A stretch of 64,000 bases of DNA, from IMG/VR virus record IMGVR_UViG_3300013426_000017, positions 64,001 to 128,000 of that record, one strand, 5' to 3'. Each line of letters opens with the position of its first letter. Position 1 is the first letter of the stretch. Positions 5,572 through 40,280 of the stretch are shown in pieces. The notes beneath the pieces were generated by a model that did no database searches, was not told where the DNA came from, and worked only from the letters and a program-made list of their open reading frames with translations. The DNA is from a virus (lineage: Duplodnaviria > Caudoviricetes). A program made the position numbers and the translations under genes.

Positions 5572-5647
5572 TCCGGCGTAGTGTAAAGGTTAATGCAGCT
5601 GGCTCTAACCCAGCGGATCCCCGTTCGAGTCGAGGGCGCCGGCGCCA
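5572..5647 (+). tRNA. Amber suppressor tRNA (anticodon CTA), likely Gln
   Basis: Cloverleaf with GCTGG-CT CTA AC-CCAGC anticodon arm (CTA at 5605-5607), TTCGAGT T-loop, G73 and encoded CCA. Confidence 0.92.
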
Positions 5648-6645: not shown

Positions 6646-7815
6646 ATGGCATTGACTGAAAAAGGGCGACAGGCCCTTGGTTATATTCAAAAATACTTTA
6701 GTGAGGGTGAATTTTGTGCTAAAGATTTGTCAGATTCATGTGGCGCAAAGGTAGCCCCCGCCACACTCACCGCAGTCGCTAACCAAGGTTTCATTGAAAA
6801 ATTGGGTGGTTCACCCGTTCAGTATAGAGCAGTAGATGAATTTGCTGAACTCATGAAATCGCTTGAAGAAAGCGAAAAAAGTGGCGCCACTAATACAAAT
6901 TTACATAATGCAAAACGGGTAAAAAATGATGAATTTTATACTCGCTATGAAGATATTGAAGCAGAGGTTATGAAATATCGTAAGCAATTCCGAGATAAAA
7001 TTGTTTATTTGCCTTGCGATGACCCCGCTGAAAAGAAAAGTGAATTTTGGTCATTTTTTGTTGCCAATTTTGAAGCATTTGGTCTCAAGAAATTGATTGC
7101 TACTCATTATGAAGAAAATGGCCAGGCATATAAAATTTGGATTGACCGAGACAATGATTTGAATGGCAATGGTTGGATTGATGATGGCGATGCCATTCAG
7201 GAAGACTTGATGGGCAATGGTGATTTTCGCAGCCCCGAATGTATTGAAATTCTCAAAGAATGTGATATAGTATGCACCAATCCACCATTTAGTCTGTTTA
7301 GAGAGTTTGTAGATGTTATTATGACTCATAATAAGCAATGCTTAATTATCGGTAATCAAAATGCATTTACTTATGCCGAAATTTTTGAATTAATTAAAAT
7401 GAACCGCTTATGGACTGGATATAATATGGTAAAGCAGTTTATGGAACCCGATGGAAATTTAAAATCCTTTGGAAATATTTGTTGGTTTACTAATTTGTTT
7501 ACAAATAAGCGTCAAGAGGAACTGATACTAACTAAGGATTATAATCCAATTGATTATCCTACATATGAAAATTATAATGCTATTGAGGTTGGGAAAGTAA
7601 TAAATATACCTAAAAATTACGATGGTATTATGGGTGTCCCTATTACTTTTATTGATAAGTATAATCCTAATCAATTTGTGATTATTGGGCATACTCATTC
7701 CGGTGACAATAGCCCCGAAGTAGAGGCAATAAGAACTGATAATAATCATCGACATGGCGGATTTATCAATGGTAAAGAAAAATATATGCGTGTTCTAATT
7801 CGTCGCAAGAAATAA
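6646..7815 (+). CDS. EcoRI-family adenine methyltransferase with N-terminal winged-HTH
   Basis: AK..KNDEFYT, LPCDDP, GDFRS.EC and TNPPFSLFREF motifs. Confidence 0.85.
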   Translation: MALTEKGRQALGYIQKYFSEGEFCAKDLSDSCGAKVAPATLTAVANQGFIEKLGGSPVQYRAVDEFAELMKSLEESEKSGATNTNLHNAKRVKNDEFYTRYEDIEAEVMKYRKQFRDKIVYLPCDDPAEKKSEFWSFFVANFEAFGLKKLIATHYEENGQAYKIWIDRDNDLNGNGWIDDGDAIQEDLMGNGDFRSPECIEILKECDIVCTNPPFSLFREFVDVIMTHNKQCLIIGNQNAFTYAEIFELIKMNRLWTGYNMVKQFMEPDGNLKSFGNICWFTNLFTNKRQEELILTKDYNPIDYPTYENYNAIEVGKVINIPKNYDGIMGVPITFIDKYNPNQFVIIGHTHSGDNSPEVEAIRTDNNHRHGGFINGKEKYMRVLIRRKK

Positions 7816-7895: not shown

Positions 7896-9062
7896 ATGGA
7901 GATTCGTAAAACAACTATTACTATTCGTGAGCTGTGTGCTGGTTATGTAAACGACACTGAGACTGACATTGAACGTGGTGTATGGGCTTATGGTGGAAAG
8001 CTGTGTGTTCGTCCTGAATTTCAGCGTTCCTTTGTCTATAATGCCAAGCAGGCAAATGCTGTAATTGATACAGCCCTCAAAGGGTTTCCCCTTAATATCA
8101 TGTATTGGGTTGATAATGGCGACGGCACTTATGACTGCCTCGATGGTCAGCAGCGCACAATTAGTCTGTGTAATTTTGTAGATGGTCTGACATCATATCA
8201 TGGTAATGCTGTGTATACCGAAAAGCCGATGTATATTTCTACCCTTAAACGCTTGTATCCTGAAATGGAGCAGAAATTTCTCGATTATCCTCTTGAGATT
8301 TATATTTGCCGTGGCGCCAAGGCCGATCGTATGGAGTGGTTCAAGACGATTAATATTGCTGGCGAAGAGCTCTCGTCACAAGAGCTGCGTAATGCTAACT
8401 ATGTAAGTAAGTGGCTGACTGATGCAAAACGCTATTTTAGTAAGGCTAATGGTAATGCAAAGTGCCCCGCGGAGAATGTGGGTTCCATGTATACTAAGGC
8501 TAATGCAAATCGTCAGGAATTGCTTGAGCAGGTAATCACTTGGTATATTGATTCCAAGAAGGATGAAGATATTTGTCAGTATATGGATGAGCATATTAAT
8601 GATGACAATGCTACTGAACTTTGGGATTATTTTAATAATGTAATAGAATGGATTGAGACTCTATTCCCCGGCACATATGATAAGGGCATGGCAAATCTCA
8701 ATTGGGGTTCCCTTTATAATAAATATCATGATGAAGAATTTGATTCTGAGGAAATTGTGAATAAATTTAATGAGCTGATTGAATTTAAGGCATCTAAGGA
8801 GCTTGATGCATCAGTAGGAAAAATTGTAGAATATTGTATTACTCGCGATGAAAATCTACTTAAGCATAGAGCATTTAGTGAAGCTCAGCGAACTACTTTG
8901 TATAATCGTCAGAAGGGCATATGCCCTGATTGCGGGGAACATTTTATTAAAGCTGATATGCATGCTCACCATATTGTCCCATGGTATGGTGGCGGTATTA
9001 CTGAACTTACTAATGGCGTTATGCTTTGTAAGAAATGCCATACTAAACGTCATGCCGAATAA
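7896..9062 (+). CDS. DUF262 (GmrSD-like) + HNH endonuclease
   Basis: RPEFQR and DGQQR motifs. C-terminal CPDC..HAHHIVPW..GG.T...NG.MLCKKCH. Confidence 0.85.
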   Translation: MEIRKTTITIRELCAGYVNDTETDIERGVWAYGGKLCVRPEFQRSFVYNAKQANAVIDTALKGFPLNIMYWVDNGDGTYDCLDGQQRTISLCNFVDGLTSYHGNAVYTEKPMYISTLKRLYPEMEQKFLDYPLEIYICRGAKADRMEWFKTINIAGEELSSQELRNANYVSKWLTDAKRYFSKANGNAKCPAENVGSMYTKANANRQELLEQVITWYIDSKKDEDICQYMDEHINDDNATELWDYFNNVIEWIETLFPGTYDKGMANLNWGSLYNKYHDEEFDSEEIVNKFNELIEFKASKELDASVGKIVEYCITRDENLLKHRAFSEAQRTTLYNRQKGICPDCGEHFIKADMHAHHIVPWYGGGITELTNGVMLCKKCHTKRHAE

Positions 9063-9091
9063 TTGACAAAAATAAAATTTTTTGTTATAAT
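9063..9091 (+). promoter_or_regulatory. Consensus promoter for tRNA cluster 2
   Basis: TTGACA-N17-TATAAT with extended TG. Confidence 0.8.
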
Positions 9092-9177
9092 ATAAATACA
9101 AGGTAAATAATACCTTCACAATTAATTTTCCCCTATTAATTGTTTGGGATTTTCAGAAATGGAAATCCCTTTTATAT

Positions 9178-9252
9178 GCTAGGTTAGCTCAGAGGCAGAG
9201 CGGGCGCCTTGTAAGCGCCAGGCCGAGATTTCGAAATTCTCACCTAGCTCCA
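9178..9252 (+). tRNA. tRNA-Thr(TGT)
   Basis: GCTAGGT/ACCTAGC-T-CCA acceptor and GGCGC-CT TGT AA-GCGCC anticodon arm. Confidence 0.9.
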
Positions 9253-9373
9253 GGAATGATGGTTCGAGTCCATCTCGCTGATCGAGGTTAGGTAAGTGCG
9301 CGCGATCAAGCCCCTCTCGCAGTTCCGGTCTTAATTGGCTACTGTCCCATGAGGGGGGCGCTTTAGATAAGAT

Positions 9374-9462
9374 GCGCCATAAATTCGTCCGGCGGCGAAA
9401 CCGGTCTTGAAAACCGTGTGTATCAGCAATGATATGTGGGTCGGCACCACTGTGGCGCGCCA
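9374..9462 (+). tRNA. Non-canonical 8/4 tRNA-Ser(TGA)
   Basis: 8-bp acceptor GCGCCATA/TGTGGCGC, G73-CCA, 4-bp T-stem GTGG-GTCGGCA-CCAC, anticodon TGA at 9408-9410, variable arm TATCA-GCAA-TGATA. Confidence 0.8.
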
Positions 9463-9483
9463 CTTAACAAGGAGAATGAATAT

Positions 9484-9635
9484 GCGCTCGTAGCTCAGAT
9501 GGTAGTAGCACTTGACTTTTGGTAGATTAGCCTAGCGGTCAGGCGGCGGACTGTTAATCCGCTTCAGATTAGTTCAACTCTAGTATCTACCGCCAAATCA
9601 AGGTGTCGCGGGTTCAAGTCCCGCCGAGCGCACCA
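9484..9635 (+). tRNA. tRNA-Lys(TTT) split (halves 9484-9520 and 9596-9635) by a nested tRNA-Asn
   Basis: GCGCTCG/CGAGCGC-A-CCA acceptor. Joined arm CTTGA-CT TTT AA-TCAAG. T-arm GCGGG-TTCAAGT-CCCGC. Confidence 0.9.
9521..9595 (+). tRNA. tRNA-Asn(GTT), nested in the tRNA-Lys anticodon loop
   Basis: GGTAGAT/ATCTACC-G-CCA acceptor, GCCT/AGGC D-stem, GCGGA-CT GTT AA-TCCGC anticodon arm, ATTAG-TTCAACT-CTAGT T-arm. Confidence 0.9.
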
Positions 9636-9650
9636 TTTCTTTCTTTTTTA

Positions 9651-9697
9651 GCCCTATATAGAATTACATGATGATTTTATATAGGGCATTTTTTATT
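9651..9697 (+). terminator. Terminator after tRNA cluster 2
   Basis: GCCCTATATA...TATATAGGGC followed by ATTTTTT. Confidence 0.7.
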
Positions 9698-9751
9698 TAG
9701 TTAATTAATTTTATTAAGGAGAAATATATATTTAAATCTAAAAATGTTTGT

Positions 9752-10081
9752 TTGATTATTAGTGTGGCGTTGGCTATTTTGTGCCTTATTATTATGATTG
9801 TTGCTTTAGGCACTGGTTCGCAGGGGCTTAATAGTAGTGATGGCACTGAGGTAGCCGGCACTGCTCTGGGTATGGCAATTGTTATGCCATGTGTAGTAGT
9901 TGGTGGTATTGGAACTGTATTGCATACTATTGGTGGTTGTGTCTATAAGCGGGGCTTGGTTCTTGCTGGACTGATTTGTGAGTGCGCTTCTATTATATTT
10001 ATGTTTCTCTGGGGAATGTATTATATTCCCGCTATTGTTCTTGGTTTTATTGGTTACGCCAAGATGCCAAAAAAGGTTTAA
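9752..10081 (+). CDS. Small multi-pass membrane protein (start uncertain)
   Basis: Three to four hydrophobic segments. Confidence 0.6.
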   Translation: MIISVALAILCLIIMIVALGTGSQGLNSSDGTEVAGTALGMAIVMPCVVVGGIGTVLHTIGGCVYKRGLVLAGLICECASIIFMFLWGMYYIPAIVLGFIGYAKMPKKV

Positions 10082-13114: not shown

Positions 13115-13855
13115 ATGAAATATTTTGTTGTATCAGATATACATAGTTTTTTTGGTGAATTTAAAAAGGCAATAGACGAAGCGGGATTTGATCCTACTGA
13201 CGAAAACCATAGGCTAATTATTTGTGGCGACTTGTTCGATCGAGGATCTCAGCCCCTAGAGCTCATGCAGCATCTTAATGAGGAGGTTCCCAATGCTATA
13301 CTCATTCGCGGCAACCACGAGGATTTGTTTGTTAAAATGTGCGAACGCGGCGAACCTTGGATGCATGATTATAGCAATGGAACTGCACAGACTATATTTG
13401 ATTTCACTGGCGTGGATAAGCCTTGGCCATTTGAATACCGGGCTGAAGTAGCGCTTGGAATGGTGCGGCCAATGCTCAATCGCATGGTAGACTATTACGA
13501 GACTGATCATTATGTATTCGTGCATGGTTGGATTCCTTGTGTTAAGGAACATCATAGGCTTGCAAAATATCGCCCATTAGAAGAAGATTGGCGCGATGCC
13601 CCCAAAAACAAATGGGAAGACGCCAGATGGTATAATGGCATGGATTGTGCCGCCCAAGGTGTAGTGGTCCCCGGCAAGACAGTAGTGTGTGGCCATTGGC
13701 ATTGTAGCTATGGGCATTGGTTTTATGAGAATGATGGTAAGCCTGAGTTTGGCGAAGGAGCTGATTTCTCACCTTATTATGCCAATGGAATTATAGCAAT
13801 AGATGCTTGCACTGCATACTCGGGCAAGGTAAATTGTATCGTGCTTGATGATTAA
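13115..13855 (+). CDS. Metallophosphoesterase (calcineurin-like)
   Basis: SDIH, GDLFDRG, RGNHE, VHG and GHWH motifs. Confidence 0.9.
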   Translation: MKYFVVSDIHSFFGEFKKAIDEAGFDPTDENHRLIICGDLFDRGSQPLELMQHLNEEVPNAILIRGNHEDLFVKMCERGEPWMHDYSNGTAQTIFDFTGVDKPWPFEYRAEVALGMVRPMLNRMVDYYETDHYVFVHGWIPCVKEHHRLAKYRPLEEDWRDAPKNKWEDARWYNGMDCAAQGVVVPGKTVVCGHWHCSYGHWFYENDGKPEFGEGADFSPYYANGIIAIDACTAYSGKVNCIVLDD

Positions 13856-13928: not shown

Positions 13929-14534
13929 TTGATACTTATGAATTTTATTTTACCAACTATTACAATTAATATTGAACGATGGAAATGGAATAGAAAATAC
14001 CGAGTATTTGTATCTAACAAAGGGCGAGTAAAGAATGTTGAGGGCCAGCTTCTTAAAGCTAGAATGACTAGTTCGGGTTATTTAGCAGTTAAAGTAGCTG
14101 CTAAAAAAATGATGAAAATTCATCGTCTTGCTATGGAAACGTGGCGCCCCATCGCAAACCCACAGGAAATGACTGTAGACCATCTTGACCATAACAAGCG
14201 TAATAATGATATTCGTAACCTTGAATGGGTTACTGAGGTAGAAAATCGCAAACGTGCGGCGGCAGATATGGTTGTCGAAAAAGAAGTAGAACTCATCAAA
14301 GCCAAAGAAATGATACAACATAAACAAATTTATGTTGATTGTAATAGTGGCGAAAAATTTACTAATCTTAATAGTTATATAACTTATTTATATCGAACTG
14401 ATAAGAGTATTTCTCGTAATGTACAATTGACACCAGCAGTCTGCGCCACAAAAATAAAAAATAAACTTGCCGCTCATGGCGGAATAACTAAATGTTATGG
14501 ACATAAAATAGCCATGATAACTGTAGCAGAATAA
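13929..14534 (+). CDS. NUMOD4/HNH homing endonuclease
   Basis: VSNKGRVK, HRL and VDHLDHNKRNNDIRNLEWV motifs. Confidence 0.85.
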   Translation: MILMNFILPTITINIERWKWNRKYRVFVSNKGRVKNVEGQLLKARMTSSGYLAVKVAAKKMMKIHRLAMETWRPIANPQEMTVDHLDHNKRNNDIRNLEWVTEVENRKRAAADMVVEKEVELIKAKEMIQHKQIYVDCNSGEKFTNLNSYITYLYRTDKSISRNVQLTPAVCATKIKNKLAAHGGITKCYGHKIAMITVAE

Positions 14535-14551: not shown

Positions 14552-15889
14552 ATGAGTATGCATTGCGGATATTGCGTAAAAGTTACTAATTTACGCCCGC
14601 ACACTAATGCAGATAGATTGCAGATTGCCACTTTCTTTGGCAATGATACTTGTGTGGGGCTGGATGTGGTCAAGGGTGAGATTGGTATTTATTTTCCCTC
14701 AGACTTGCAGCTAAGTGAAGAATTTTGTGTGGCGAACCACCTTTGCCGCAAGAAGCCTGATGGCACGCCTGATACTGGCTATCTTGATCCTGAGAAGCGC
14801 AATATCAAGCCTATTAAGTTGCGAAGCGAGAAGTCAGATGGAATTTTCTTGCCTATTAGTTGTCTTGAGTATACTGGTATAAATCTTGATGATATTAATA
14901 TTGGTGATACTGTTACTGTAGTTAATGGACATGAGATTTGCAAGAAATATATTCCTCGTGGCCGCGCCAAAAGCAACGCCGCCAAGGGTAAGGGTAATAG
15001 GACTCGTAAGAAGCATGCACCCGTGGCACCGCTATTTACTGAGCATGCTGATACTGAGCAACTTGCCTACAATCTTGGCGCATTTAAGCCGGGTGATGAA
15101 ATTGAGATCACTCTGAAGATGCATGGCACTAGCCAAAGGACCGCATACCTACCGGTTCTCAAGGGATATAGGCGGACTATTTGGGATAAGTTGCTTGGCC
15201 GCGAAGGTATTCCTATCTATGATTGGGATTATGTGTCTGGTACTCGTAGAACTGTCCTTGATGATTGGGATGGTGGTTTTTATGGTAGTAACGCGTTCCG
15301 TAAGCAGCACCATGATAAGTTCGTTGGTAAGTTGCGCAAGGGCGAGGAAGTGTATTATGAAATTACATCATACACTGATAATGGAACGCCTATTATGTCA
15401 AGTTGCTCAGTTCCAAAAGAATATCAGAATATTTATGGTGATACTATGGAATTTAGTTATGGTTGTTCACCTGATGGCGGTGACGTGCCTCAGTCCGACT
15501 TGTATGTGTATCGCATGACTATGACTAATGAAGATGGTGATGTTGTAGAATATTCACCCGATTTTATGCGTTATCGTTGTGAGCAGATGGGAGTTAAGTG
15601 CGTTCCTGAGTTTGTTCATGAGTTTATCCCCGACCAAGAGTGGCTAGATTCAATGGCGCTAACTGCCGGCGAATATGTCATGGGAGTGGCTGAGCAATAT
15701 TACGATGGTCCTGACCCAATTGGCAAGACTCATGTGCGCGAAGGTGTGGTAGTTCGTATCATTAATCGGCCCAAGTTCTGCGCCTATAAGCACAAAAATT
15801 TTTTATTTAAACTAATTACTGGTATTATTGTGGATAAAATTGCTGATTCTCGTGACGAGATTGGTGAAGACGTTTTAGAAGAATTATAA
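14552..15889 (+). CDS. ATP-dependent RNA ligase (Rnl2/DRB0094-like) with N-terminal OB/tRNA-binding-like domain
   Basis: H.NADRLQ N-terminus and KLR..KSDG. Ligase motif I TLKMHGTS, motif IV EGVVVR, motif V KHKN. Confidence 0.8.
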   Translation: MSMHCGYCVKVTNLRPHTNADRLQIATFFGNDTCVGLDVVKGEIGIYFPSDLQLSEEFCVANHLCRKKPDGTPDTGYLDPEKRNIKPIKLRSEKSDGIFLPISCLEYTGINLDDINIGDTVTVVNGHEICKKYIPRGRAKSNAAKGKGNRTRKKHAPVAPLFTEHADTEQLAYNLGAFKPGDEIEITLKMHGTSQRTAYLPVLKGYRRTIWDKLLGREGIPIYDWDYVSGTRRTVLDDWDGGFYGSNAFRKQHHDKFVGKLRKGEEVYYEITSYTDNGTPIMSSCSVPKEYQNIYGDTMEFSYGCSPDGGDVPQSDLYVYRMTMTNEDGDVVEYSPDFMRYRCEQMGVKCVPEFVHEFIPDQEWLDSMALTAGEYVMGVAEQYYDGPDPIGKTHVREGVVVRIINRPKFCAYKHKNFLFKLITGIIVDKIADSRDEIGEDVLEEL

Positions 15890-15968: not shown

Positions 15969-16853
15969 ATGATAAATCGGCAATTTGGGGTATATTTAGT
16001 TTTAGAAAAAGACCTGGAGATGAGTGCTTAGAAAAAACGAACATATTGGAAATGTCGTTGCCAAAAATGTGGTAATATTATAAGCGTTAGAGACGATAAT
16101 CTTATGCGTAATTCATAGTCCTGCCCTAAGTGTAAACACGATATTACTAATTAGCGTTTTGGTTTATTAACTGTTTTATACAAAACAAGAATAGATAAAA
16201 ATGGACATTCATATTGGATGTGTTAGTGTGATTGTGGAAAGCAAAAGGAAATTTCTTCTTCCAGTTTAAGATAGGGGACGACCCGATCTTGTGGCTGCTT
16301 GCATAGTATCACTACATCTCAGAATGTCTTAAAAGATTTAACGGGATAGAAATTCGGCAAATTAACTGTAATTTCAAGGGCTTCTAAAATTGGAGAGAAA
16401 AAAGTCCAATGGTTGTGTAAATGTGATTGCGGTACAGAAACAATAGTTAGCGGTGGCAATTTAAAAAACGGACATACCTATTCTTGTGGTTGCGTTCGTT
16501 CTAAGGGTGAGCTAAAAATACGAGAAATTTTAATTTCATTAAATATAAATTTTATAACGGAGTATCGTTTTTCTGATTTACCCAATAGGCGTTTTGATTT
16601 TTATTTACCGGATTATAATCTTTGCCTTGAGTATGATGGGAAACAACACTACCAATATGTAGCAGCTTGGCATTAGACATTAGAAAATTATATTGCGGCT
16701 TGCGACCGAGATCAAGAAAAAAATAAATACTGTTATGAACATAATATACAATTAATTTGTATTTCATATCAAGATTATGATAAACTAAACGAAGAATATA
16801 TAAAACAAATATTATCTACTATAGAAGCTGAGGAGATTTCTGATGATACCTAA
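15969..16853 (+). CDS. Free-standing endonuclease (CxCDCG repeats plus DUF559/Vsr-like domain), code 15
   Basis: About 8 in-frame TAGs. Repeated W.C.CDCG...SCGC and FDFYLPDYNLCLEYDGKQH. Confidence 0.75.
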
Positions 16854-18806: not shown

Positions 18807-19088
18807 ATGCCAAAGGGTAATCGATTTGAAATGCATAGTTTTTATTGTTTGACTTGTGGCAATAAGACATTTGATTTGCCGCGTCAATATAGCCACATGT
18901 ATGGCAAGGGACATATTAAAGACCTATATTGTCCTACTTGTCGCGCCACGAGAAAGACATTAGAGTGTAGAAATGAAACTGAGGTATTTGAGTTTAAGGA
19001 AGATTTTTTAAATGGAACCTATGAAGACGGTATGGATACTTGCGGGGCCGCCGGGCTCGGGAAAATCGACCTGGCTCGAGCAGAATAG
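18807..19088 (+). CDS. Zn-ribbon protein (YqaH / L33-like)
   Basis: FYCLTCG...GHIKDLYCPTC. Confidence 0.6.
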   Translation: MPKGNRFEMHSFYCLTCGNKTFDLPRQYSHMYGKGHIKDLYCPTCRATRKTLECRNETEVFEFKEDFLNGTYEDGMDTCGAAGLGKIDLARAE

Positions 19089-19548
19089 ATTACCCCAGAG
19101 CAGAGTAATTTCAAGGGATGAAATTCGTTTCTCGCTTGTAACTGATAAAGATGATTATTTTGGCCAAGAGGATGAAGTATGGCGCCAGTATGTAAAAGCG
19201 GCTCAGATAGCGATTTTGGACAAAGAAATTAAAAATATTTACCTTGACGCCACACATCTCAACGAAGCATCAAGAAATAAAATCTTGAATCTACTGGCGA
19301 AGCCGACCTTGCCCTATTTTGAAATTAAGGTTGTTTATTTTGATGTGTGTTTTGCAGTATGCTGCGAACGCAATGCAAAAAGAACGGGTTTGGCTAATGT
19401 TCCTATTAAAACAATTCGCAGGATGATGAATGCATTTCAAATTCCGACATTTAATGAAAAACATCTGTATACTGAAATTTGGCGTGTAGATGCCCAAGGA
19501 AATATTGAAAAGGAGATAAATTATAATGTATGTTGCTGTCCCGTATGA
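19021..19548 (+). CDS. Polynucleotide kinase-like P-loop protein (AAA_33)
   Basis: GPPGSGKST, SRDEIR, DATHL and ERNAKR motifs. Confidence 0.8.
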   Translation: MKTVWILAGPPGSGKSTWLEQNRLPQSRVISRDEIRFSLVTDKDDYFGQEDEVWRQYVKAAQIAILDKEIKNIYLDATHLNEASRNKILNLLAKPTLPYFEIKVVYFDVCFAVCCERNAKRTGLANVPIKTIRRMMNAFQIPTFNEKHLYTEIWRVDAQGNIEKEINYNVCCCPV

Positions 19549-37924: not shown

Positions 37925-38437
37925 ATGGCAAAAAGAATGTTGAAATGCTTGTATTGTGGCTAGTATTTTGATGCCAATAGTGAACCTACGGTTCAAGTTA
38001 GTGCGCGACGTTATGCTCATCAAATTTGCGCCGATAACCACGAAACCATTGATAAAGAAAGGCAAGAATTAGAAGAGTATATTAAACAATTATTTAATGT
38101 AGAAACAATTCCATCAAAAATTCAAAAGCAAATTAATTCATATATTAGAGATTATAATTTTAGTTATTCTGGCATGTTAAAAGCATTAATATATCATTAC
38201 GAAATTCAACATGGCGATATTTCTAAAAGCAATGGCGGAATTGGCATAGTTCCATATTGTTATGATTCGGCAAGAACATATTATTATAATTTATGGATGG
38301 CTCAACAACAAAATATAACTAAAGATATCTCACAATATGTGCCAAAAGTTGAAGAAATTGTAATTAAACAGCCACATAAAAAACGCAATCATAAAAAATT
38401 ATTTTCATTTTTAGATGAAGATAATGGGGGGAGTTAA
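37925..38437 (+). CDS. Zn-binding hypothetical protein upstream of helicase, code 15
   Basis: RBS and ATG 37925. CLYCG(TAG)...H..C, in frame with track ORF 38174. Confidence 0.65.
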
Positions 38438-40280
38438 TGAAAAGTAAATATGTTGACAGGACTGCCTTGGCGCAAGTCATAGGTAGTATTTTTAATTCGC
38501 CTCAAATTTTGGATTTAACAGATAAATATACAATTACCGAAGCAGATTTCCCAGATGAAATGTTGCAAGTAATTATTGGTTCAATTTATAAAATCCATGA
38601 AATGGGTGCAAAAACCATATCACTTGAGAGTATTAGTGATTATTTGGCGAACAAGCCCAAAAGTCAAGCGATTTTTCAAAGAGATAAAGGAGAAGAGTGG
38701 CTACTAAAAGCATCAGAGGTTGCAATTACGTCGGCATTCGATTTTTATTATGATAGAATGAAGAAAATGTCGTTATTGCGTGCCTATGATACTTATGGAA
38801 TTGATGTTAGTTATATTTATGACCCCGATAATATTTTTAATGCCAAGTTAAAGCAACAGCAAGAAGATCAGCTAGATAATATGTCCCTTGAAGACATTGC
38901 CGAAAAAATTGACCAACGTATTGATGAAATTAAAGCACAATATGTTAAAGATATATTTGGAGAAGCTAGCCAGGCCGGTGATGGATTAGAGGAATTAATT
39001 GATCAATTTAAAGAGGCACCAGAAGTTGGTGTTCCATTGTATGGCTCATTGGTTAATACTATTACTCGTGGCGCCAGGCTCAAGAAATTATACCTGCGGT
39101 CGTCTCCCACGGGCTGCGGGAAGAGCCGTAGCATGGTCGCCGATGCATGCTTCATTGGCTGTCCTAAAATTTATGATGATAATTTTGGGTGGATTCGTAG
39201 TGGCGCTGCTAATCCTTCGTTGTTTATTACGACTGAACAAGAACTGTCGGAAGTTCAAACTATGATGCTGGCATTTTTATCTAATGTCAATGAAGACCAC
39301 ATCCTTAATGGTAAATATGAAGGTGACGAGGAAGAACGTGTTCGAGAAGCCGCAAGAATTTTAAAGAACAGCCCGTTATATATTGAAGAATTACCTGATT
39401 TTTCATTGCAGGATGTTGAAGAAACTATTAAGAAAAATATTCGTGATCATGATGTAAATTATGTATTTTTCGACTATATACATAGTAGCATCAAGATTCT
39501 TGAAGAAATATCTCGTAAAACCAAAGGCATGTCATTGCGTGAAGATAACATTTTATTTATGTTGTCTATCCGTCTAAAAGATTTGTGTAATCAATATGGC
39601 ATTTTTATTTTAACTTCAACTCAGCTAAATGGCATGTGGCAAGAGGCCGATACACCTGATCAAAACTTGCTTAGAGGCGCGAAGTCGATCGCAGATCTGT
39701 CGCTATGGCGCGCGACAAGTCGTCCTTAATAGAAATATTAAGTGATTATTAGACCGAGAATTGCTGGAAAGCCCTAAAGTCATATAAACTACAACGTAAA
39801 TATGAAATATAATTAAGCGTGAATGTTATAAAAATTATATGAATTGGGTAATCAGCAGCCGAGCCCCAAATAGGGGAAGGTTCAACGACTATCCTGTTGC
39901 GAGGAGTAGGAAGAAATTCCGAAGTACGGTCTACCTAAACTTGTTATGTAAATAATAAGCATGGTAAAGATATAGTCTATTCCTTATAGAAATATGAGGT
40001 AGCAAAGAAAGTAGATTTTGGCGCCATTTTATTACCCGTTAAGTCTGAGGATGTGGAGAAGCTACAACCCATTCTTGACTCAGGCGTATTTGAAAAGCCC
40101 GTATTAAAATTGTCTGTTTATAAAAATAGACGAGGGCGTTACAAAGGAATTTATCTATGGTGTAAAGCAAATTTAGGAACCTGCCGTATTAATCCTATGT
40201 TTGCTACAACCTATGGTTATGAAATAATTAGTATAGATGATATGAAAATTATTGTAGAGGATGCGCCAAGCGCATTTTAA
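38437..40280 (+). CDS. dnaB: Replicative DnaB-like helicase (exons 38437-39696, 40008-40280)
   Basis: SPTGCGKS, TTE, FFDYI, TQLN, spliced AKSIAD|KVDFG and KNRRG motifs. Confidence 0.88.
39697..40007 (+). ncRNA. Group I intron in dnaB (no ORF)
   Basis: Core very similar to the phoH intron (GAATTGCTGG, AATCAGCAGC, GTTCAACGACT, AAGATATAGTCT). Boundaries taken from frame restoration. Confidence 0.82.

Follow-up and report, generated by a model that had tools for sequence, protein, structure and literature searches.

Introns of an unusual kind have been described in the tRNA genes of large phages: those of Lak megaphages are conserved and were called "enigmatic", one of them "itself may encode a tRNA" (Devoto et al. 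2019, Fig. 4, PMC6784885), and the tRNA introns of recoded jumbo phages "could encode another tRNA" according to a 2026 survey (PMC13037316). The locus analysed here, a complete tRNA-Asn(GUU) gene lying within the anticodon loop of a tRNA-Lys(UUU) gene, occupies positions 9484–9635 of a 64,000-nucleotide (nt) stretch of DNA, hereafter the window, which comprises bases 64001–128000 of a phage record of IMG/VR (IMGVR_UViG_3300013426_000017, Caudoviricetes; 175,406 base pairs (bp), 37% G+C, estimated completeness 96%). An earlier note on this DNA, made from the sequence alone, knew of no description of such an arrangement; in this it was mistaken, as both publications (PMC6784885, PMC13037316) mention it, albeit without a mechanism. 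A literature search returned no paper giving an architecture rule, a mechanism or a link to ligases for tRNA-shaped introns. The published introns resemble the present ones in that alleles with and without the insert exist and the insert is highly conserved, a likeness of description; in contrast to those reports, which offer neither an architecture rule nor a mechanism nor a connection to RNA repair, the insert of the window is a canonical decoding tRNA whose ends coincide with tRNA positions 1 and 76. The locus is genuine and belongs, as an unusually clean example, to a class that has been published but not explained. It is set apart by the canonical cargo, an outer tRNA that is the classic target of anticodon nucleases, and a series of alleles at the same gene; new in the present analysis are a minihelix rule that holds for 41 of 41 distinct inserts and a census of the accompanying ligase and kinase genes.

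Group I introns (RF00028), which splice themselves from the anticodon loops of bacterial and phage tRNAs and of which some contain homing endonuclease genes, share with these inserts the anticodon-loop site and a mobile, patchy spread with intronless alleles; the long members of the present class carry HNH open reading frames. A group I intron was rejected for the locus itself: the RF00028 model gives no match at 9000–9800 up to an E value of 1, though it finds two introns elsewhere in the window, and the 75-nt insert is too short for the fold. The last base of a group I intron is G, whereas this insert ends in GCCA. The introns of archaeal and eukaryal tRNAs, removed by the splicing endonuclease and sealed by RtcB or Trl1, are similar in that removal of an anticodon-loop insert depends on proteins and is followed by ligation of paired halves. 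Here, too, the fit is poor, since the insert lies at 36/37 and not at 37/38, the junctions flank a 7-bp acceptor helix with no 3-4-3 bulge-helix-bulge motif (by inspection), and both the archaeal splicing endonuclease (PF01974) and RtcB are absent from the phage genome; the sites of tRNA-shaped introns range from 34/35 to 36/37, and their ends are defined by a tRNA-like acceptor end. In the repair by T4 of tRNA-Lys cut by PrrC, which employs Pnkp and Rnl1, the substrate is again tRNA-Lys(UUU) with a break in its anticodon loop, the two pieces being kept together by the tRNA body, and genes for a kinase and an ATP-dependent ligase are at hand; the break there, however, is damage inflicted by the host at 33/34, while here it would be programmed by the structure of the gene, and the ligase is Rnl5-like rather than Rnl1. 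Finally, the inner tRNA would be released in the same way as from polycistronic tRNA precursors, which are processed by RNase P and 3′ nucleases, but its flanks are two tRNA halves to be joined and not spacers to be discarded.

The nested tRNA-Lys/tRNA-Asn gene and its alleles

The inner gene (9521–9595) extends from G1 to CCA76; ARAGORN calls it Asn(gtt), and it scores 54.2 bits with the Rfam model RF00005, the gathering score of which is 29. Its acceptor helix reads GGTAGAT...ATCTACC and is followed by a G discriminator and CCA; a T arm with a 5-bp stem and a 7-nt loop (ATTAG-TTCAACT-CTAGT) abuts the 3′ acceptor strand, and the anticodon is G34 U35 U36. The anticodon and G73 are the identity elements for asparaginyl-tRNA synthetase. 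The cargo is, by its cloverleaf, GUU anticodon and G73, a canonical elongator tRNA-Asn that is predicted to be charged and used in translation; it is 71% identical to the free-standing tRNA-Asn of a related phage (G045).

As the earlier note had proposed, ARAGORN was run on the locus with and without the insert. On intact DNA tRNA-Asn alone is called and tRNA-Lys is missed; after deletion of the 75 nt a tRNA-Lys(ttt) of 77 nt emerges, the anticodon arm of which reads CTTGA-CTTTTAA-TCAAG; its acceptor stem has 7 bp, and its CCA is encoded. The restored loop, CTTTTAA, has 7 nt and contains U33, which places the insert inside the anticodon loop, between positions 36 and 37; there is no spacer, the boundary cannot be slid, and the junction presents U at −1 and G at +1. 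Sequence, ARAGORN and Rfam thus agree with the original claim of a full 75-nt tRNA-Asn set without spacer into tRNA-Lys. The centroid of the thermodynamic fold of the 152-nt unit contains, of the outer tRNA, the acceptor arm, the T arm and part of the anticodon stem and, of the inner tRNA, the arms of the acceptor, the anticodon and the T loop. The genome has no further tRNA-Lys or tRNA-Asn gene, the sole gene of each lying at this locus; in the long reading frames of the phage AAT is the most used codon (52 per 1000) and AAA ranks fifth (42 per 1000).

The same genome holds a second nested gene, a tRNA-Pro(UGG) split at 34/35 by an 87-nt insert (L001:3905–4067, corresponding to 54404–54566 of the genome; ARAGORN, introns allowed), 19 kilobases (kb) upstream of the Lys locus and approximately 9.5 kb before the window. 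This insert is a mimic resembling a class II tRNA, with a degenerate anticodon arm and the tail ACTA instead of ACCA. In the orthologous insert of a close relative (G031), the outer Pro gene of which has no encoded CCA, two compensatory pair changes are found in the acceptor and T stems of the insert's own fold, which indicates that this fold itself is under selection. The only tRNA-Lys and the only tRNA-Pro of the genome are both invisible to ARAGORN in its default mode; the intron mode found the Pro case, missed the Lys case and misplaced boundaries (the CCA of an insert, for example, was read as a Trp anticodon), and a purpose-built detector was used instead.

The tRNA-Lys gene of the window exists in several allelic states among related phages. 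It is intronless in L006 and L037; in L003 and L009 it carries at 34/35 a tRNA-shaped insert of 734 nt with an HNH reading frame, and in L067 and L069 a different HNH-carrying insert, of 586 nt, at 36/37. In the closest relative (L002/G031), which is 97% identical in a DNA polymerase fragment, only a dead 3′ remnant of the gene (T arm and acceptor) is left: a GIY-YIG-like open reading frame (YIYQITN...YIGKT; L002:5100–5935) stands where the window has the spacer, the 5′ half of tRNA-Lys and the Asn gene, and this relative has neither a tRNA-Lys nor a tRNA-Asn.

Recurrence and common design of the inserts

The detector requires of an insert a 7-bp helix between its first seven bases and the seven bases ending 4 nt before its end, and of the exons U33, a 5-bp outer anticodon stem, a junction within a 7-nt loop and an ARAGORN-valid tRNA after removal. 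In a first sample, 80 loci around homologs of the window's RNA ligase, 39 candidates were accepted; the helix was perfect in 27, and 24 of these end in CCA, which the detector does not demand. The reversed sequences (81 contigs) yielded two weak candidates, none with a perfect helix and none ending in CCA. The 12 candidates with six of seven helix pairs, none of which ends in CCA, were treated as false. Widening the sample by two motif scans of IMG/VR and by whole-genome scans of 17 relatives brought the total to 72 instances of 41 distinct inserts, 47–844 nt long, in contigs of related phages, and in all 72 removal of the insert restores a perfect tRNA. A chance origin of the arrangement is excluded. 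The particular combination of Lys and Asn was encountered only once: neither two exact-pattern scans of IMG/VR nor one junction scan of metagenome contigs returned a second example, and the eight matches to a looser, gapped pattern were all chance matches without tRNA context.

All 41 inserts start at position 1 of an acceptor-like helix and end with a discriminator and 3 nt after it, the terminal triplet being CCA in 35, CAA in four and CTA in two. U precedes the insert in 33 of the 41, and in 28 the insert begins with G. A 5-bp stem with a 7-nt loop is present exactly at the position of the T arm in every one of them, without the detector asking for it; this holds for mini-inserts of 47 nt as well as for inserts of 586–844 nt with HNH endonuclease reading frames. 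The point of insertion, on the other hand, is 34/35 in 24 cases, 35/36 in eight and 36/37 in nine, the first base of the second exon varies, and removal nevertheless always restores a 7-nt loop; the ends are therefore set by the tRNA-like top half of the insert and not by the host tRNA. Real tRNAs are a minority among the inserts, namely Asn in the window, Phe in L018 and CUA suppressors in L052 and L056; the others are mimics.

The smallest substrate of bacterial RNase P, an enzyme that prefers U at −1 and G at +1, is a minihelix of acceptor and T arm that ends in NCCA; this minihelix is also what tRNA 3′-end enzymes measure. The common design of the inserts is, as judged from these features, a module recognised by RNase P and by tRNA 3′-end enzymes.

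Several further peculiarities were observed. In many mini-inserts (L007:5264–5338, L056:2740–2787, L054:2484–2539 and others) the T loop reads GGCAGGA, GGCAGCA or GTCATCA, with the 5-bp stem and the 7-nt loop retained. U34 is common to all interrupted tRNAs (Lys UUU, Glu UUC, Gln UUG, Ile UAU, Arg UCU, Leu UAA, Pro UGG and Thr UGU). The insert of tRNA-Glu(UUC), 79 nt long in L006 (1055–1133), has within its own anticodon loop an additional 16 nt in L005 (1062–1156) and an additional 53 nt in L003 (604–735), the latter piece with a 6/7 helix and no CCA; the sequence is possibly that of a nesting three levels deep.

The earlier note had held that neither gene of the nested pair looks decayed, and had named decay of the Lys halves in relatives, without compensatory changes, as the result that would speak against an intron. 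All 17 pairs of the acceptor, anticodon and T stems are intact in every interrupted tRNA examined. The exons of the window's tRNA-Lys are 95% identical to the uninterrupted ortholog at 6749–6825 of L006; the differences are a compensatory change of T6-A67 to C6-G67, one change from a wobble to a Watson-Crick pair, and one base of the D loop. Orthologous tRNA-Ile(UAU) genes with homologous inserts differ by three to five fully compensatory pair changes, with no pair broken. These observations bear out the claim and lend support, short of proof, to the view that the outer tRNAs are maintained.

RNA repair genes, the proposed splicing route and its alternatives

The window encodes a candidate sealing enzyme (Table 1), an ATP-dependent RNA ligase with motif I KMHGTS at residues 189–194, of which K189, H191, G192, T193 and S194 are invariant in 20 homologs. 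Its match to TIGR02306 is weak and lies below the cut-off, which makes the protein a distant member of the Rnl5 group. A sequence search against solved structures gave no match; with an AlphaFold model (predicted local distance difference test score 72), Foldseek found NgrRnl (6vt4) as the best match, over the whole length with an E value of 2e-13, and T4 Rnl2 as the next. The model suggests a nick-sealing enzyme of the Rnl5-like type, joining a 3′-OH to a 5′-phosphate, for which sealing of an anticodon loop is predicted.

In a census of records found by the insert motif alone (30 searched, 21 with verified inserts), this ligase family occurs in only two of the 21, which are also the only two of the 30; 11 others carry an RNA ligase of the Pfam RNA_ligase family (Rnl2-type) and six one of the Rnl1 type, and the two verified records without a ligase are 58% and 80% complete. 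All 17 near-complete records with inserts encode exactly one of the three ATP-dependent families, while RtcB was found in none of the insert-motif records of this census. In a comparison set assembled by similarity of the DNA polymerase, nine of 17 near-complete genomes have such a ligase (Fisher p 0.0013 for 17/17 versus 9/17; p 0.0003 for the other pooled contrast). Two of these nine carry a tRNA-shaped insert; the eight relatives without ligase, with 55 tRNA genes searched on both strands, carry none. All 20 near-complete insert-bearing genomes encode a Pnk-like kinase, mostly 1–2 kb from the ligase, and all of them likewise encode an ATP-dependent RNA ligase. The association which the earlier note expected for the ligase family of the window did not hold for that family alone; it did hold for the three families, Rnl5-like, Rnl2-type and Rnl1-type, taken as interchangeable, together with the Pnk-like kinase. 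On these counts the link between inserts and ligases is a clear tendency, not proof.

From the observed anatomy and recurrence of the inserts, their design of a minihelix followed by N and 3 nt, the outer tRNAs with their intact, co-varying stems and the co-occurrence of inserts with genes for a ligase and a kinase, we infer every enzymatic step of the following route. The operon would give a single transcript comprising tRNA-Thr, a tRNA-like RNA and the nested precursor, with tRNA-Asn serving as intron to tRNA-Lys(UUU). The inner tRNA would fold alone and present its acceptor/T-arm minihelix with the GCCA end; RNase P of the host would cut 5′ of the inner G1 and leave a Lys 5′ half ending in CUUUU with a 3′-OH, and an endonuclease acting like a ruler would cut directly after the inner A76, which would release mature tRNA-Asn and a Lys 3′ half beginning with A37. 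The halves may be held together by the contacts of the acceptor stem, the D and T arms and the anticodon stem; the Pnk-like kinase and the phosphoesterases would heal the ends if needed, and the Rnl5-like ligase would seal U36 to A37. The spliced junction is expected as ...GCACUUGACUUUU-AAUCAAGGUG..., and the outcome would be two working tRNAs for two of the five codons most used by the phage. We regard it as probable that the insert is a tRNA-shaped intron cut by tRNA-trimming enzymes and resealed by RNA repair enzymes of the phage, with a yield of two tRNAs. The idea of the earlier note that the inner tRNA acts as an intron stands insofar as the ends fall exactly at tRNA positions 1 and 76 and the design fits processing followed by ligase sealing; the splicing itself is a prediction by comparison. 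Two further ideas of the earlier note, timing gated by the ligase and a precursor that is shielded from anticodon nucleases such as PrrC or decoys them, are conjectural. Neither RtcB, Pfam Rnl1, an RNase Z-like protein, the archaeal splicing endonuclease nor a CCA-adding enzyme was found encoded in this phage genome; for want of an RNase Z-like enzyme, the splicing endonuclease, RtcB and a CCA-adding gene, the cuts would have to come from host enzymes or from an unrecognised protein.

A number of points weigh against this route. The 3′ cut is its weakest step: most bacteria have an RNase Z that is blocked when CCA is encoded, and they mature the 3′ ends of such precursors with exonucleases, which could not spare the 3′ exon. 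Enzymes of the Rnl5 group are known from work with nicked duplexes and are not known to have been studied on anticodon loops. The association with ligases is confounded, since RNA repair genes are a frequent counter-defence of large, tRNA-rich phages; the census records are phylogenetically non-independent, and within the DNA polymerase clade alone the contrast, 3/10 versus 0/8, is not significant (p 0.15). Since the collections searched contain the Lys::Asn pair only once, its intactness could reflect recent insertion and not selection. The detector demands an intact outer anticodon stem and a valid spliced tRNA, and decayed cases are therefore missed; for the covariation this means that intact outer genes only were seen, and mobile inserts can enter alleles that have already diverged. 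For the 3′ cut there is, on the other side, a precedent in the tRNase Z of Thermotoga maritima, which cuts exactly after an encoded CCA (PMC3161902).

The alternative that fares best is that a dedicated endonuclease of phage or host, so far unrecognised, cuts both junctions and leaves a 2′,3′-cyclic phosphate and a 5′-OH, which the kinase, the phosphoesterases and the ligase then repair as in T4. The Pnk-like kinase of all 20 insert-bearing genomes, mostly located beside the ligase, would be needless if both cuts were hydrolytic and left 3′-OH and 5′-phosphate ends; two phosphoesterases are encoded near the ligase of the window, and for the likely hosts a bacterial enzyme that cuts after CCA is not known with certainty. 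Yet the minihelix, N73 with 3 nt, U−1 and G+1 are the substrate features of RNase P and of tRNA 3′-end enzymes; no candidate family for such an endonuclease was found, the archaeal splicing endonuclease being absent from the phage genome, and defence against anticodon nucleases explains kinase-ligase cassettes, too. We consider this alternative unlikely, if the most serious of those weighed.

Still less likely is that the tRNA-Lys gene was killed by the recent arrival in it of a tRNA-Asn gene or of some selfish element shaped like a tRNA; tRNA-Asn would then be the sole product, the Lys halves would be waste, and the host would supply tRNA-Lys. The solitary occurrence of the exact Lys::Asn arrangement in the collections searched would fit, and so would the loss of tRNA-Lys to the GIY-YIG-like gene in G031/L002, which makes the gene dispensable in that lineage. 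Against it speak the preservation of all 17 stem pairs and of the 7-nt loop, and differences from the intronless ortholog that are neutral or compensatory; moreover, 72 instances restore a perfect tRNA, outer stems evolve in a compensatory manner, inserts are absent from relatives that lack a ligase, and AAA is among the most used codons. An assembly chimera of separate tRNA-Lys and tRNA-Asn genes, conceivable for a contig of metagenomic origin, is very unlikely to the point of being negligible, because the same design recurs in dozens of independently assembled contigs and again in this genome, the junctions fall exactly at tRNA positions 1 and 76 with restoration of a 7-nt loop, and there is no repeat at the junctions to mislead an assembler.

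The tRNA operon, its surroundings and what splicing would mean

The nested gene is the last gene of a small operon consisting of a promoter, tRNA-Thr, a tRNA-like gene, the nested gene and a terminator (Table 1). The tRNA-like gene, situated 24 nt upstream of the nested gene and missed by ARAGORN, scores 42.3 bits (E 5.5e-7) with the Rfam tRNA-Sec model, below the gathering score of 47.

Table 1. Features of the tRNA operon and candidate RNA repair genes in the window
Feature	Position	Strand	Evidence
Sigma-70-type promoter-like site, TTGACA-17-TATAAT, TG extended, heading the tRNA operon	9063..9091	+	12/12 consensus matches; putative function
tRNA-Thr(UGU), first gene of the operon	9178..9252	+	ARAGORN; Rfam 55.7 bits
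tRNA-like gene with 8-bp acceptor stem, long variable arm, loop CTTGAAA (UGA, Ser-type) and non-canonical T loop GTCGGCA	9373..9459	+	Rfam tRNA-Sec model
tRNA-Lys(UUU) 5′ exon: acceptor strand, D arm, anticodon stem strand, loop 32-36 (CUUUU)	9484..9520	+	Sequence, ARAGORN
tRNA-Asn(GUU), putative intron of the tRNA-Lys gene	9521..9595	+	ARAGORN, Rfam
tRNA-Lys(UUU) 3′ exon: loop 37-38 (AA), anticodon stem strand, variable loop, T arm, acceptor strand, ACCA	9596..9635	+	Sequence, ARAGORN
Intrinsic-terminator-like hairpin with T run, closing the tRNA operon	9651..9697	+	16-pair stem, then ATTTTTTATT
Calcineurin-like metallophosphoesterase adjoining the ligase, possible 3′-end healing enzyme (putative role)	13115..13855	+	PF00149 E 2e-16; weak match to Pnkp phosphatase region
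ATP-dependent RNA ligase, Rnl5-like (Naegleria/Deinococcus type), N-terminal OB domain and adenylyltransferase; candidate sealing enzyme	14552..15889	+	phrog_968 'RNA ligase' E 2e-61
Polynucleotide-kinase-like P-loop kinase (AAA_33), candidate 5′-end healing enzyme	19012..19548	+	phrog_505 E 5.9e-22; PF13671 E 2.6e-17; TIGR04075 Pnkp weak
Phosphoesterase, possible 3′-end healing enzyme (putative role)	19885..20334	+	phrog_547 E 2e-30

Two free-standing nuclease genes flank the tRNA operon and the ligase: one for a protein with GmrSD_N and HNH domains (7896–9062) directly upstream of the operon, and one resembling HNH_3/NUMOD4 homing endonucleases (13929–14534) immediately before the ligase gene. 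The two group I introns of the window are located at 21842–22173 (Rfam 90.7 bits) and 39689–39999 (73.9 bits), the second at the end of a reading frame for a DnaB-like helicase (38437–39729). Two reading frames, 47400–49181 and 50111–52492, encode the DNA polymerase; the approximately 930 bases between them suggest that the gene is split or that a mobile element lies in between. At 5573–5643 a CUA suppressor tRNA is encoded, and many reading frames (e.g., 71–2431 and 15969–16853) become much longer if TAG is translated, in keeping with a recoding of TAG in part of the genome. Among GenBank phages no close relative was found, the only match being to the neighbouring tRNA-Thr.

Whether these inserts amount to a distinct class of phage introns, designed neither for self-splicing nor with a bulge-helix-bulge and consisting of tRNA mimics or real tRNAs that are excised by universal end-processing enzymes and whose splicing is completed by the Pnk/RNA-ligase cassette of the phage, which until now has been seen purely as a repair kit for counter-defence, such that tRNA-Lys(UUU) would be functional only in the presence of the phage ligase, we regard as an even question. 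For experiments the locus offers a clean test substrate, with canonical partners, an unambiguous junction, and both intronless and HNH-intron alleles of the same tRNA-Lys. Should the proposed route prove correct, it would constitute a further route of tRNA splicing beside group I self-splicing and splicing by endonuclease and ligase, built from the RNase P and the 3′-end nuclease of every bacterium plus a phage ligase; it would also explain why standard tRNA finders under-count the tRNAs of large recoded phages. The RNA ligases and polynucleotide kinases of phages would then gain, beside the repair of damage, a housekeeping role in the maturation of the phages' own tRNAs.

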